From Opitutia bacterium (GTDB lineage: Bacteria > Verrucomicrobiota > Verrucomicrobiia > Opitutales > Opitutaceae): 64,000 nt of DNA. The stretch covers positions 640,001 through 704,000 of the forward strand of contig CANJVR010000001.1 of NCBI GenBank assembly GCA_947478395.1, in the 5' to 3' direction. Positions within the stretch are counted from its first letter, which is position 1. Every line of letters starts with the position of its first letter. The position numbers are program-made. Below, in pieces: positions 12,001-24,000 of this stretch.

Positions 12001-15000
12001 CAAACGCAGTCGATGATCGATCGCGGCGAGTGGCGGATCCGACATGTCGACTACGACAACGCTCCGCGCGGTCGTGAGGTACACTGGGCGATGCCCTTCC
12101 ACGCATGGCTGGCTGGGCTGGCCTGGATCGATCGCATCGTTTCGGACCGCCCGGCCGGTATTGCCGTCGAACGCGCCACGCTCCTGTCCGGCCCGGTCAT
12201 GCTCGCATTACTGCTGCTCGGACTCATGCCGTTTTTGAGCCGGAAATTCTCAACGATCGCGGCGGTGCTGGTCGCCATCGGTACCGTAACCACGTTTACG
12301 TTCTACCTCGATTTCATGCCGGCGCGGGCGGATCACCACGGACTCGCGATTATCTGCGGTTTATTCGTCGTGCTCTGCCTGGCGGCCGGTTCTTCGTTCG
12401 CGCCCCGTGTCGGAGCAAATCAAACGTCGGGCGCTGAAGATGAAATTCGCTCCGCGCGCTGGTGGTTTGCCGCATCGGGGCTGGCGGGTGGGCTGGGCTT
12501 GTGGGTGAGCGCCGCCACGACGGTACCGCTACTCGTCGGAGTAGGGCTCGGCCTGCTCAGCGGCGGTTGGATCGCGCGTCGTGCACCGGGATCACTGACC
12601 TGGATGAGGGTGCCGGGGTTGTGGCGGACCTGGGGCTGGGTCGGCGGCGGCACGAGCCTCGTCGCCTACACCATCGAATATTTCCCCAATTCCGCGGGTA
12701 TGCGGTTGGAGGTAAATCATCCGCTGTACGCCGCCGCCTGGGTCGGCGCCGGCGAACTGCTGCGCGCGGCGGTGATCGCGATGAACGCCGGGACCAAGAC
12801 ACTTTCTCGGCGTGATCTGAGCACCGCGACGGTGGCGGCCGGTTTGGTCACGCTTCTGCCGCTGGCTATATTCTTCACGGGAGAAAAAACATTCACGGTG
12901 TCAGATCCCTTCATCTGGCAATTACACTCGCGCTACATTTCAGAGTTTCAAAGCTTGGGCCGAAACTTCGCGGAGAAAGGCATTCATTGGGCAACCCTGG
13001 ACCTTTGCGGGCCCATGCTGTTCTTGATTCCGCCCATCGTTCTCCTGTTTCGGTCGGGCCCGTCGCGCGCGGTAAAAGCAGAACTTCTCCTCGTGGCCGT
13101 GCCGGCCTGGTTGGCGTGGGCGATGGGATGGAATCAGGTGCGCTGGCTCAGTTTGGCCTACGCGATGTCAGTGCCAGGGCTCGCGCTTTTCTTCCGCGCG
13201 CTCGAGGCCGAAAGCGGTGACGCGCGAAGGCGCCAGGTCGTCGCGTGGGCGGCGGCCTGCGGATTACTGATGCTTCCCGGCGCCATGAGCGCCGTGCAAC
13301 GAACCCTCACCAGTGCCGAATCCACCGCGACTGAGATTCGCCGCCTCGCAGAGCGCGATGTGGCGCACTGGTTGCGACTGCGCGGCGGTCCGGACCGCAC
13401 TGTCGTGGCGGCGGCGCCCATGCCGACGACGCGGCTGATTTCCGAAGGCGGGATGGCCGGATTGGGCACGCTCTATTGGGAAAATGCCGAAGGGCTCAAA
13501 AATACCGCGGCCCTTTTTGCCGCGAGCTCACCCGAGACGGCACGGGCTATGGTGCAACGACTCGGCGTGACTCACATCGTACTCTTTTCGTGGGACGCCT
13601 TCGAGATCACGTTGGCGAAACTCTATCGCGGCCTGCCGGAAAGCGCGCCGATCCCGCCGGATCTGTTCATCGCGAACCTGCTCGCCTCACCGCTGCCCCC
13701 GGCGTGGTTGCGGCCGGTCCCGTTTAAATTGCCAAATCACCCGTCGCTCACTGGGGCGCAGGTCCGTATCTGGGAAATTACGCCCGACCAATCGCCGGCG
13801 GAAGTCGCCGCTCACGCCGCGAACTATTATCTCGAGCTGGGCACGCCGGGTGTGAGCGCGACGTTCGCACCGCTGCTGGAAGGATTCGGCAACGACCTCG
13901 CCGCCACAGTCATGCGCGCAGCTCTCGCGGCGCGCGAACGGGACGGAGCCCGCTTCTCAGCCGCGCTCCAACCCGTGATGGCGCTCCTGCCCCGCGCCGG
14001 GACGCTCGCGCCCGAGGATCACGTTCATCTCGTGACGGTGCTCGCGATCGCGCAGCAAGCGGATCGGGCGCGCGAGCAATTGCAGGCGTGCATGAGAAAA
14101 ATCGACGAACGCAACCTGCGCCATTTCAGTACGGGTGCATTGACCGACTTGCTCGAGTTGTCGGCAGCATTGCAGGTGCCGCTGCCGAGCCCCGCGCTGC
14201 AACGACTGGCGGAAAAACTCGTGCCGCCGGCGAAGCGAAAATAGCGCGGCTTAAGTTTCTCCGTCGCCTTTGAGTGTAGCGGCCGGCGTCTCTGCCTGCC
14301 CGGTTAGGCGAAGTCGATAGCGGGCACGTTTTGGTTAAACCGCTTTAACGCGGCGTCGCGGGTAATTTTTCCAACATCGCGCGCGCAGCAGTGAATCCCG
14401 GATCAATTTTCAGCGCATCCTCAAAGCGCGCGCGTGCCTCGGGCCAACGTCCGGCCACCAGCAGCGCGTAACCAACATTGTAGTGGACCCGCGGATCGGC
14501 GGGACGCAGACGCAGCGCCGTCTCATAATGCGCGAGCGCTTCGGCACTGCGTTTCGCGTCGAGCAACGCGAGCGCGAGATTCGTGTGCGTTTCGGGCGCA
14601 TCGGGGCGGAGACGAACCGCTTGCTCCAGCTGGGCAATACCGTCGGTCAGCTTCCCCGTCTGGGCGAGCGCGATGCCGAGATTGAGGTGCGCATCGGCGT
14701 GGGCGGGATCGAGCCGGATGACCTCGGCGTACTGCGCCAGCGCCTCGTCCGTCCGACCGCTGCGCGCGAGAGCCTGCGCGAGATTGAAATGCGCCGCCGG
14801 CCAACCGGGCCGAAGGTGCAGCGCGGCGGTAAAATGCTCGATCGCCGCGGGCATGGAATTCGTCTGGAGCAGCGCCACGCCCCAATTGCTCTGGGCCTCG
14901 GCGTGCTGGGGATCGCCCTGCACGGCCAGCGCGTAATGTTCGATCGCCTCCGTCCAACGCCCGAGTGCCGCCAACGCCACCCCGAGTTGAAACTGTGCCT

Positions 15001-21000: not shown

Positions 21001-24000
21001 CAAACCAGAGAACCGATGGCGGCCCAAGAAGCGGGTCCAGCCTTCGTTTTTCTTGAAGTTGAGTTCATACGCCACGACCGCGCGCAGATTATTATTGATT
21101 TCAGGACGGGAGAAATCGTCGGCCTGCCAATCCTGGACGTACGGCGAACCGAAATACGGATTCGGCGAGCCGTCCAAGAGCTTGGAGTTGGTATCGACGA
21201 ACAGACGAAGATTATCGTTAACCTGTCCTAGGCCGTAATGATTGCGCTCCTGCATTTCCTGGCGGAACCAGCCGAAATCGACGTTCAGGTTGGGCAAGAT
21301 TTCCTGTTGGAATTGGATATTGAACGTCTTGGCGTCCTGCGAACCGTAGTTCGCGCCTTGGATATTATATTTGGTCCAGTCGTAGATGGACTTGTCGGTC
21401 ACGCCGACTTCGTACCAGGTGCCGTATTGCGTCGCGCCCGTGCTAGCTGGGGGCCGCGGCGTCTGCAGCAATGCTGAGGTCGTGTAACGCGCCGAAGCAG
21501 CCAGCCACTGAGCGGCGGTGCGGTTAGCGGCGAGGGGAGCTGCATAGGTATTTAATGGGGCGGTGGTTGCGCCAGCGCCGGACAATGCGCTATCAACCCA
21601 GAAATCGACGAGTGCGCCTTGGTCGTAGCGGATGCGCTGGCGGCCAGGGATCGTGATACCGGGAATATAGAAGGCCGACGTCGTGCCACTGATTGCACCA
21701 TCACCAACCGGGGAAACTGCGGTCGACACAAACCGTGGATCGCGGCTGTCAACCAAGTAGGGCCCACGCGTCTGGCCAGCCTGCGCGCCGGATGTAAACG
21801 TGACCGTTTGGGTCGTGGGATCCCAGGCCGGACGCCCGGCGTTGACCCAAGGTGTAACGATGTCGGTCGGCTCACCGAAATTGGGACGATTGTTATCGTT
21901 GTGGTAGCGTTCGAAGGAGGCCGTGATCTTCGTCTTGCCGTTGGCGAATGGCTTGTAGGTCAGAGCCGCCGTCGCGCGTTTGTAGATATCGGACGACGGT
22001 TTCCGTTGGAAACCGCGGTGATCGTCGAGGACTGCGGCGTACAAAGCGACCCTGGTGCCGAGCGGAACATTCACCCCGAGGCTGGCGCGCCAAGCGCCAA
22101 AACTGCCGAAGCGGGCCGAGACCGTCGTGTGATTTTGGTTCAACACTGCCTCGCTGGTCGATTGATTGACGATACCCGAGGCGCCACCGGCGCCGAAGAG
22201 CATCGAGTTCGGACCGCGGCTGATTTCAACCGAGTTCGTGTTGTAGGTATCGAAAGCCAGACGCGAAATCGTGGGATAATTATTCTGCGCTGTATCGGCC
22301 GCGCCCAAGCCGCGTACGCGATTCGCCGTCGCGATGCCAAAAGGAATGCCATCGTCGTTGCTGTAGCCGCCGATACCATCGCGCGCCGCGCCACGATTCA
22401 CGAGACTCGGCGTATAAGTGGCGGCGCCTTCCGTGTTCGATTCGAACAGGAAGATGTCGTTGATATCGAGCGCGCCCGTATCTTCGATCTGCTGTTTCGT
22501 AACGACCGTGATCGAGGCGGCGAGATCGCCGACGTTCGTGTTCAGGCGGCTGCCGAAAAGGGTATTCTGGGCGTAGTAACCAGAATCCTTCTCCGAAGAG
22601 ACGGTGAACGGAGAAAGTTCAACGACGCCAGAATTGGCATCTGCCCCAGTTGCCGTCGCACTCGCAGCTTTCGCTTGGTCCGCCTGCATGGCGGCAACTT
22701 CGTCAGCGTCGAGCTTGCCGTTTTTGTTTTTGTCGTACTGCGCGAGATTCTTCGCGGTGTCAGCGGCGGGCGCGCTCTGCGCCCACAGCGTGGCCGATGC
22801 CGTCAGAAGGCACAGCGGCAGTAATGCACGCCGTGTTTTCCGTGATAGGGGAGTCGATTTCATAGTTCAGATCGGGGGTGTGGTGTTAGGGAAGATGAGA
22901 GGCCATCGCTGCCAAAGCAGCAGCAACGACTGTTTCCAAATGGCGGGGAAATTTACAAGAATGGGATAACTAACCTCCCAAAACCAAACGGAATAAAAGG
23001 CTGGGCAACCGTTGCAGGATCGGACGGTCCGAAAGGTGGTCGCAGCAGTATTCGGGAGCGGTCTTTAGCCACGTCGACGTCATGATCGGAAAGTGGCCCT
23101 CCGGTTTAGAACCTCAGCCTTCAGCGTTGAACCAAAACGTTGTCGGCTAATGACGTAGCGGCAGGCGTCCCTTCCTGCCGAAATGATGCGCCGAACCCGG
23201 CCGGCACCGACGCATCCCTCGGTCCAAGATGGGGATCGAACAATCTCAACTGCCCTTGCGGGTCGAAATAGGCCAAAAAAAGGCCCTCCGCTTTTGACGG
23301 AGGGCCTTGGAAGACGATCGGGGACGATTACAAATCGAACGTCGCCGTGAAGATGAACTGGCGCGGATCGACGATACGGAAGCGCCAAGGCGTTCCGTCA
23401 GGATTAACCGCCGTGGGCTGAAGACGACCGCTCTCGTTTACGTTGTTCACGTTAACTTGGAAACGGGTTCCGATGCGATTGTTGAACAGCTTGGTGCGGT
23501 ACGTGGCCAAGATGTTGGCATTGCCCGTCGCTTTGTCGTAAATGGGCTTGGTTCTGTCCAGCGTGCGAACAACGCCGTCGGAATCAGCCGGACCCGCGAG
23601 ATAGCCGATCGCGCCTCGGCTGGCCCAGCGATAAGAACCACCGACGGAAACATTCTTAAGCCAATTGTTGTTTACCAAGCCACCCAGCCCGGCCAGCTGG
23701 AAGTTCGTAATGAAGTTCGCCGAGTATTCACGGGTCTGGGGCTTTTTCTTGCCCTGGGTCGTGATCGCCAGATTGAGCGGCGTCTGGATGTTGGCCGTGT
23801 AATAATCAACCGGGCGGCCGTTCGAGCCCTGGGTCGTGGTCCACCATAACGTTCCGTCGGGGGAACGGACCGTCGTCCAAAGCGGCAGGCGGAGATCAAT
23901 ATACTTCTGAATGAACAGCGAGATATTCGTATCGATCGCCTCCTGCTTGTTGCCCGTCACCTTGAGGGTCCAATACCGGGTGGGGTTAAGGTTGATTTCC

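Follow-up and report, generated by a model that had tools for sequence, protein, structure and literature searches.

The window, i.e. the whole stretch of 64,000 nucleotides of an Opitutia bacterium analysed here, contains two genes for TMTC-like proteins directly downstream of a long TonB-dependent receptor gene of clade alpha (19174-22863), and a second receptor gene (23328-26855) lies further upstream. The following features were annotated:

9452..10831, minus strand: L-rhamnose-isomerase-like gene (TIGR02635, 491.7 bits, just below the cut-off of 531)
10852..11583, plus strand: soluble GT2 of the DPM1/AglJ type (PF00535, E 2e-31)
11743..14244, plus strand: STT3/AglB-like GT-C protein of 833 aa, convergent on the TMTC array
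14345..16558, minus strand: second TMTC-like gene of the array (GT-C + TPR, clade A, 737 aa)
16980..19031, minus strand: first TMTC-like gene behind the receptor (GT-C + TPR, clade A, 683 aa; the true start possibly lies somewhat further in)
19099..19129, minus strand: terminator-like intrinsic hairpin with T tail at the junction of receptor and first TMTC-like gene (14-pair stem, 8 G-C, -23.9 kcal/mol)
19174..22863, minus strand: long TonB-dependent receptor of clade alpha, 1229 aa (Plug PF07715)
23280..23308, minus strand: terminator-like intrinsic hairpin behind the second receptor (12-pair stem, 8 G-C, -23.0 kcal/mol)
23328..26855, minus strand: second long TonB-dependent receptor, ORF of 1175 aa (Plug match)

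Fold and motifs of the TMTC-like proteins

The N-domains of the two TMTC-like proteins share 49% identity. The product of 16980..19031 scored 733 with the clade A profile and gave no match with that of clade B. The product of 14345..16558 carries the motifs DD, RP, RxE, KE and EHRxY, and its TPRs begin at about residue 410. For the AF2 model of its N-domain (pLDDT 95.6), the best structural matches in VIA-align were ArnT (Z 20.4, rmsd 4.4, 335 aligned residues), AglB (19.5) and Pmt (19.2), the latter two within about 1 Z of the first. Nearly all of the top 20 rows were GT-C enzymes (Z 20.4 to 10.1), the next unrelated row having a Z of 5.7; the exceptions are two PIG-U subunit-type chains of the GPI transamidase and a third at rank 14. 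Foldseek agreed on the GT-C fold. The modelled fold, together with the acidic motif in the first extracytoplasmic loop, places the proteins in the GT-C superfamily. This motif is DD in 98% of 150 clade A domains and reads D (81%) or N (19%) followed by D (100%) in 27 clade B domains, both sets containing a few loci fetched twice. The DD, the motif-4 lysine, HP-x3-E and the motif-7 acid and tyrosine are near-invariant in both clades. The TMTC-like proteins are inner-membrane proteins of GT-C fold that carry a TPR arm and in which the catalytic-type residues are intact.

Their layout, with a TPR array behind a GT-C domain, is that of animal TMTC1-4 (CAZy GT105), the ER O-mannosyltransferases of cadherins. 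Both groups share the first-loop DD, the K(E) motif, the motif-7 acid and tyrosine and ArnT as nearest solved fold; full-length prokaryotic TMTC homologues have been described before, and for the animal enzymes, too, the closest homologue with a solved structure is ArnT (PMC7801869). Unlike the latter, however, the window proteins gave no match to PF08409 (TMTC_DUF1736), neither in the two N-domains (E 10) nor over the cut-off in the genome nor among the 120 listed homologues. A comparison by eye with the motifs in Table 4 of PMC7801869, made without alignment to the human sequences, showed SHKSYRP (M2) to be absent except for RP in clade A and YP in clade B. The TMTC motifs M3, M4, M5 and M7 (RxD, KE, DW, ERxxY) have close counterparts in clade A (RxE, KE, D/E-Y, EHRxY), whereas clade B is further off (QxN, KT/S, no D, DHFxY). 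ESM Atlas features gave bacterial PMT_2-type clusters at 0.98 and a eukaryotic DUF1736 cluster at 0.92 (rank 18). Searches with the domain against solved structures returned no match by sequence and no TMTC structure by fold. Three of the 120 listed homologues are named 'protein O-mannosyl-transferase' by JGI.

The survey's finding had counted six TMTC paralogues in this genome. Six genes at five loci with a GT-C fold and C-terminal TPRs were indeed found, all six with the DD motif, but strict membership in the TMTC family does not hold, as PF08409 gave no match. The TMTC-like family is large (106,781 clusters at E 0.001 and 29,017 at E 1e-30) and tandem-prone, with up to 33 matches per genome. 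It also differs from the animal TMTCs in its many paralogues per genome and in its gene link to beta-barrel receptors instead of cadherin-type proteins.

Pairing of receptors and TMTC-like genes

The product of 19174..22863 shows a signal peptide, plug, beta-barrel and C-terminal aromatic/hydrophobic beta-signal; its AF2 model (pLDDT 87.3) matched FpvA and other TonB-dependent receptors in Foldseek (E 3.6e-31). It is the sole clade alpha receptor of this genome. The second receptor falls outside clades alpha and beta, clusters with unpaired receptors in the tree and is not part of the conserved pair.

A same-strand receptor had been reported ahead of the TMTC genes at four of the five loci of this genome, which is too high, as they lie directly behind one only in the window and at locus C5. 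At C3 an LMF1-family gene intervenes. At C7, which by gene order corresponds to g02429/g02430 of the survey, the TMTC-like gene (31543-33561, plus strand) and an Oar-type receptor gene (33767-37030, minus strand) stand tail-to-tail, and the locus C1:22k is without a receptor. The adjacency exceeds chance: a same-strand receptor lies directly upstream of 24 of 2527 genes, which gives P = 0.0009 for at least two of five loci. The recount yielded 32 receptors among 2527 crude gene calls, against the earlier 34 of 2660. The DPM1-like GT2 reported at two loci lies two genes past the TMTC-like genes on the opposite strand in the window, and 15 kb off at C7.

Across the family, whose members live in freshwater and soil, 45 of 60 genomes hold TMTC-like genes (previously 15 of 21). 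In a receptor-centred count of the scorable long TonB-dependent receptors of these 60 genomes, a TMTC-like gene follows directly downstream of 19 of 44 clade alpha receptors, in all 19 cases of clade A, and of 11 of 30 clade beta receptors, in all 11 cases of clade B, against none of the 37 remaining long receptors. Leaving out the sequences from which the profiles were built gave 14 of 36 and 7 of 24. Two lineages of TMTC-like proteins are each tied to one long-receptor clade. One exception is L175, in which a clade A gene lies behind a beta receptor. Distances between receptors and between their partners correlate (rho 0.65, 21 pairs), and the outer flanks mostly differ, so that the pair itself represents a conserved unit. 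TMTC-like genes occur in 20 of 20 genomes with beta receptors and in 25 of 40 others. Fisher tests across genomes gave p values of 0.03 (alpha), 0.001 (beta) and, in another test, 5e-7, which are overstated because kin genomes are not independent. On the tree, the clade label requires 20 changes, against 39 +/- 2 after shuffling; the clade match accordingly reflects about two inherited linkages and not 30 events.

No TMTC-like gene stands directly behind 25 of the 44 alpha and 19 of the 30 beta receptors, and four genomes with alpha receptors (94-99% complete) gave no TMTC-like match at all. Of the 33 TMTC arrays in six relatives with single-contig genomes, 10 have a same-strand upstream receptor, three more a divergent one and 20 none. 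Separate TMTC subclades also adjoin Oar-type receptors. Beyond the family, none of 35 fetched arrays touches a receptor, in genomes with 5-13 TMTC-like genes but only 1-2 receptor plugs. The periplasmic O-glycosylation system for receptors proposed by the survey therefore stands in part: there is good support for a GT-C glycosyltransferase that faces the periplasm, and the link to receptors is real and matched by clade, but a general system is not supported, since only two long-receptor clades and a few Oar-type or other links are involved and most TMTC-like genes, like more than half of the alpha and beta receptors, are unpaired. The link is narrower than proposed, yet more specific.

Junctions, partner genes and cargo

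Terminators were found at 22 of 24 and at 20 of 21 receptor-TMTC junctions, and a simple receptor-TMTC operon was dropped for this reason. They follow 22 of 32 receptors of this genome anyway, and thus do not favour any reading of the pair over its rivals. A sigma-70 promoter scan gave nothing above shuffled sequences (3 vs 4.7). The alpha receptor gene is covered by RNA-run contigs, which cannot rank genes. The TMTC-like genes are almost without such cover; among the pieces listed none spans the junction, and contigs cannot show transcript ends. As the runs had themselves been retrieved with this stretch, their coverage is given no weight here.

The order of a gene for an abundant surface protein, a Rho-independent terminator and a membrane glycosyltransferase gene is shared with the pilA-tfpO/tfpW cassettes of Pseudomonas aeruginosa, where pilin glycosylation blocks phages (PMC11841053; 10.1101/150227). 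This arrangement, with the enzyme gene directly behind and a terminator between, was found at 19 of the 44 alpha receptors and at 11 of the 30 of clade beta. Unlike the pilin cassettes, it involves a TonB-dependent receptor of 1,200 aa and a putative TPR-bearing TMTC-like enzyme, and links fewer than half of the receptors.

Each module has a second membrane family: an STT3-like protein with alpha, and a membrane plus TPR protein, family C, with beta. The window's STT3-like protein has no Pfam match; its ESM Atlas features reach 0.98 to STT3 clusters, with TM 0.72-0.73 to AglB clusters. Its WWDYG-type motif is degenerate, with YWEN at the motif position in five of five aligned sequences, which makes its Asn specificity doubtful. 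The order receptor-TMTC-STT3 recurs in L061, L105, L108, L125 and L223. Of 12 core members of family C, 11 adjoin a beta receptor or TMTC-B. In three cases a family C gene directly follows a beta receptor lacking TMTC-B, the common feature being a membrane anchor plus TPRs. Comparison of family C with the TMTC domain gave a probability of 97% with TPRs and 1% with the membrane domains alone, the latter test being insensitive, as it also missed the link between TMTC and STT3-like proteins. The GT2 (best NCBIfam match AglJ, 116.5 bits, under the cut-off of 325; no TM helix predicted) is a candidate polyprenyl-phosphate-sugar synthase.

Gene neighbours of the alpha and beta receptors include LacI, an SSF symporter, GH28, GH43, PL11, GH106 and pectinesterase, and the window adds the L-rhamnose-isomerase-like gene. 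From this context, the alpha receptor is probably an importer of pectin/rhamnogalacturonan oligosaccharides. The slot behind alpha receptors is often taken by an SSF symporter instead (5 loci).

Candidate acceptors and alternative explanations

The alpha and beta receptors may be the acceptors of their clade-matched TMTC-like enzymes, a tentative reading to which we give a probability of roughly 0.4. A single sugar would be loaded onto polyprenyl phosphate by the DPM1-like GT2. On the periplasmic side, where its active site and TPRs would lie, the TMTC-like enzyme would hold the unfolded receptor chain after Sec export and attach this sugar to Ser/Thr residues ahead of barrel folding into the outer membrane. 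The terminator would allow abundant receptor mRNA, with the enzyme expressed by scant read-through or from a promoter of its own, as for pilin accessory genes. The benefit might be that an abundant surface protein is hidden from phages or helped to fold, and other paralogues of the family could serve other exported proteins. A study on human TMEM260 offers a model for the choice of the receptor chain: this O-mannosyltransferase likewise combines GT-C with lumenal TPRs, which clasp an unfolded beta-strand acceptor (10.64898/2026.03.17.711096). It belongs to a different family, however, in which a Rossmann-like domain separates GT-C from the TPRs, whereas the window TPRs directly follow the last helix.

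This reading is supported by the GT-C fold and motifs, the clade-matched pairing, the distance correlation, the differing outer flanks, the TMTC-like genes in all beta genomes and the second membrane family per module. Parallels in its favour are the terminators, which resemble those of the pilin cassettes, the acceptor-clasping TPRs of TMEM260 and the O-glycosylated outer-membrane proteins of Tannerella. It is weakened by the small number of linkages, the unpaired receptors, the four TMTC-less alpha genomes, L175, the receptor-free arrays within and beyond the family, ArnT, a lipid modifier, as closest solved fold, and the lack of a Ser/Thr signature. Neither Ser/Thr content (0.162, 0.161, 0.159) nor N-x-S/T sequons are in excess in alpha and beta receptors; the D-S/T motif is not enriched (2.7 and 1.2 vs 3.2 per 1000 residues), and clade-specific Ser/Thr columns gave no signal against other residue classes. 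An apparent excess of 15 against 1 disappeared under a fairer control. A complex prediction of the window TMTC-like protein with the first 200 modelled residues of the receptor scored 0.00, which is no answer and weighs neither way.

Inherited synteny or co-regulation is a serious contender, though held at less than even odds: two TMTC-like genes would have settled long ago behind receptors of pectin loci, and their targets would be broad, e.g. secreted pectinases, with the receptor no special one. About two origins suffice for the long-receptor pairs, these receptors sit amid pectin-use genes, the symporter can fill the same slot, and elsewhere the huge family is unlinked to receptors. Yet the pair was kept across genera despite changing outer flanks and an intervening terminator, none of the 37 other long receptors is paired, and further separate TMTC subclades adjoin Oar-type receptors.

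It is improbable that the sugar goes to lipid A, LPS, another envelope glycolipid or glycan (ArnT/Gtr-like) or the imported oligosaccharide, with the TPRs scaffolding a complex. ArnT is the top structural match, surface-glycan genes surround the paralogue at C7 and the mannose-contacting SHKSY of M2 is missing; but ArnT, with AglB and Pmt so close behind, is equally nearest to the animal TMTCs and does not discriminate, and TMTC and TMEM260 enzymes, which modify proteins, are built in this way, with GT-C plus long TPRs. Least probable is a TfpY-like chaperone or adaptor on the periplasmic part of the receptor, with catalysis secondary or aimed elsewhere, which would suit family C with its membrane domain lacking detectable TMTC homology, the motif residues missing from clade B and the non-enzymatic accessory genes that hold the same slot behind pilins (PMC11841053), but not the near-invariant residues of both clades, as in active enzymes.

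Returning to the receptors as acceptors, an elaboration into receptor-specific modules in Opitutaceae, with a TMTC-like enzyme and a second GT-C-type partner per pectin-receptor clade, target choice by TPRs like that of animal TMTC and TMEM260, and phage masking, is unlikely. If true, it would provide the first substrate for bacterial TMTC-like enzymes, and beta-barrel proteins would join the targets of domain-specific O-glycosylation. The literature searched reports no substrate for any bacterial TMTC-like protein, and a search of openly accessible papers on receptor glycosylation and Opitutaceae glycoproteins did not return the receptor-TMTC pairing. Acceptor receptors would mean target-specific glycosylation of TonB-dependent receptors, possibly a layer of phage evasion, and a bacterial model of substrate choice by TMTC-type enzymes; otherwise the pairing is ordinary inherited gene order.

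The general O-glycosylation of Bacteroidota (motif D-S/T-A/I/L/V/M/T) is periplasmic, like the one proposed here, and acts on exported proteins, 53 outer-membrane proteins being O-glycosylated in Tannerella forsythia (PMC8550257). Unlike the pairing in the window, it is general and has no gene link to its targets. The alpha and beta receptors, in turn, are testable candidate targets of sugar decoration, for which the clade-matched pairing supplies built-in controls in the unpaired receptors and the other clade.

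TMTC-like genes and their loci

The source genome (3.3 Mb in 9 contigs, completeness 98.8%), of which the window covers C1:640001-704000, was analyzed on 2527 crude gene calls made from ORFs and a hexamer score. It is taken as a member of the Opitutaceae, since its TMTC-like genes have their closest named relatives mostly in this family. As the survey had reported, six TMTC-like paralogues were found at five loci, each with a DD motif after the first helix. They fall into two clades of about 27% identity to each other: clade A, with the two window genes and the one on contig C7, and clade B, with those on C5, C3 and at a second locus of C1 (C1:22k).

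Features of the window
11743-14244, convergent with the TMTC-like genes: STT3/AglB-like protein, in which YWEN replaces WWDYG, with a helical C-terminal extension
14345-16558 and 16980-19031, minus strand: clade A TMTC-like genes
19099-19129: strong terminator between receptor and enzyme gene
19174-22863, minus strand: long TonB-dependent receptor (clade alpha)

The two TMTC-like genes are separated by a 421-base gap (16559-16979) with weak hairpins only and a sigma-70-like match at 16595-16566; the corresponding genes abut in the relatives L105 and L108. At L061, L084, L128, L141 and L156, three to seven TMTC-like genes stand in tandem, and some of the TPR proteins adjoining them are family members too divergent for the profile to recognize.

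A same-strand receptor lies directly upstream at the window locus and on C5, that is at two loci, or three if one intervening gene is allowed, and not at the four of five claimed before. Nevertheless, two of five exceeds chance (P = 0.0009). On C3, an LMF1-family gene lies between receptor and TMTC-like gene, on C7 an Oar-type receptor adjoins tail-to-tail on the opposite strand, and C1:22k has no receptor neighbour. The LMF1-family membrane protein (C3:115478-117727, L003:7479-9728) carries Sel1 repeats and is a second ER-protein homologue at its locus.

The predicted fold of the N-terminal domain (pLDDT 95.6) matches the GT-C structures of ArnT (Z 20.4), AglB (19.5) and Pmt1-Pmt2 (19.2), with unrelated entries at 5.7 or less. 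Compared with the TMTC motifs in Table 4 of PMC7801869, clade A keeps DD, RP, RxE, KE, D/E-Y and EHRxY, whereas in clade B the conserved positions are reduced to DD, the lysine and the acid and tyrosine of motif 7. Profile searches gave no PF08409 match, and in the ESM Atlas bacterial PMT_2-type clusters rank first (0.98), with a eukaryotic DUF1736 cluster at 0.92. These proteins are TMTC-like GT-C enzymes and at most putative members, in the strict sense, of GT105, the family to which TMTCs are assigned (PMC6801728). Full-length prokaryotic homologues have been noted before (PMC7801869); the TMTC-like family comprises 106,781 clusters at E 0.001. Members were detected in 45 of the 60 family genomes, where a single genome may yield up to 33 matches, and across the phylum 59 of 151 genomes, the source genome included, have them.

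Two receptor clades and their partners

A tree built from 38 long receptors places those with a TMTC-like partner, apart from one outlier, in two clades (support 99): alpha, including the window receptor, and beta, including the C5 receptor. With cut-offs placed at gaps picked in the score lists (E below 1e-130 for alpha, below 1e-150 for beta), a search of the same 60 genomes yielded 45 alpha genes, spread over 32 genomes, and 31 beta genes, spread over 20. After omission of one gene of each clade that ends at a contig end, 19 of 44 alpha receptors have a TMTC-like gene directly behind them, of clade A in all 19 cases, as do 11 of 30 beta receptors, of clade B in all 11; seven receptors were called unpaired from coordinates only. 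When the profile-building sequences are removed, 14/36 and 7/24 remain. In the source genome, clade A genes follow the sole alpha receptor and a clade B gene the sole beta receptor. Of 37 long receptors outside the two clades, taken from five single-contig genomes, none has a TMTC-like gene directly behind it. One exception, beyond the 60 genomes, is L175, where a clade A gene lies 1.3 kb behind a beta receptor. We found no report of this pairing among the papers listed in searches of the open-access literature. All 20 beta genomes contain TMTC-like genes; alpha receptors can apparently do without such a partner, because the profile search gave no match in 4 of 32 alpha genomes.

An EF-hand-like motif (about 22690-22740, Pfam E 0.05) was observed in the N-terminal extension of the window's alpha receptor, and some other long receptors, whether alpha, beta or unpaired, have it too.

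Counted from the enzymes, 10 of 33 arrays in six single-contig relatives have a same-strand receptor directly upstream, three a divergent and one a downstream one (every listed match was fetched, with 12 of 25 candidates scored in the relative G117). Among 77 scorable arrays from 78 clade A-like loci (11 further arrays, of 88 in all, adjoin a locus end), 10 have a same-strand and four a divergent receptor. Outside the family, none of 35 scorable arrays (34 loci, mostly one best match per genome) touches a receptor recognized by the source-genome profiles, which divergent receptors could escape, and five genomes of this group, each with 5-13 TMTC-like genes, have just 1-2 receptor plugs apiece. 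Taken as a whole, the TMTC-like family therefore does not constitute a receptor-glycosylation system, and the survey's prediction is not supported in this general form.

Possible acceptors, inheritance and terminators

We propose as the likeliest reading, at a probability of roughly 40%, that the enzymes act in the periplasm, where they would use a polyprenyl-phosphate sugar donor to glycosylate exported proteins, with the TPR arm selecting the paired receptor as acceptor; such a choice would resemble that of TMEM260, which is described as picking unfolded beta-strands. Inherited synteny within pectin loci is nearly as likely: both alpha and beta neighbourhoods hold pectin-use genes (LacI, SSF symporter, GH28, GH43, PL11, pectinesterase), to which the window adds a rhamnose-isomerase-like gene. 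The clade match largely reflects about two ancient linkages passed on by descent. On the TMTC tree, 20 changes are needed to account for the receptor-adjacent label, versus 39 +/- 2 when it is shuffled, and the receptor-partner distance correlation (rho 0.65) follows from few inherited linkages. However, the pair is kept from genus to genus with mostly different outer flanks, and other TMTC subclades adjoin Oar-type receptors in three orientations, which argues for selection. Sequence comparison gave no Ser/Thr or sequon signature marking paired receptors. A lipid or glycan as acceptor is unlikely, and a non-catalytic partner role improbable.

A plain operon of receptor and enzyme is ruled out, because a terminator separates them. 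Terminators were found at 22 of 24 receptor-enzyme junctions of the first sets (one duplicate locus included) and at 20 of 21 further ones, after 18 of 52 other same-strand upstream genes, and behind 22 of 32 receptors of the source genome generally. The same layout is seen in Pseudomonas pilin cassettes, where the terminator attenuates the downstream glycosyltransferase (PMC11841053) and the pilin glycan blocks phages (10.1101/150227). Read-through at the receptor junctions, like a benefit of the modification, is presumed here. Contigs from four freshwater RNA runs cover the genes of both receptors in the window.

Accompanying modules

The window layout, in which two or three clade A genes lie between an alpha receptor and a convergent STT3-like gene, recurs at L061, L105, L108, L125 and L223. 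Among STT3-like matches from 61 genomes, the four closest each point towards a TMTC array (one judged by coordinates only), and STT3/AglB-like relatives occur in 28 of 60 family genomes. Judged from coordinates alone, the one at C1:302222 of the relative G038 closely follows a long receptor gene.

A small family of membrane proteins with TPRs, family C (211 proteins), accompanies the beta receptors; its proteins, of about 500 aa, have a multi-helix membrane part, for which Pfam gave no match. The 12 core members are all from beta genomes, and 11 of them have a beta receptor or clade B TMTC-like gene as neighbour; three members lie directly behind beta receptors without a clade B gene. The search of the source genome found none.

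Examples of family C
L253:7814-9316
L254:2648-4123
L250:3407-4903

At C7:44509-55428 (L301:2512-13428), another receptor heads a series of same-strand genes. These encode a 1017-aa membrane protein (about 13 helices predicted), then a DPM1-like GT2, two further membrane proteins and an epimerase. All three membrane proteins are without Pfam match, and the locus is a possible further GT-C cluster.
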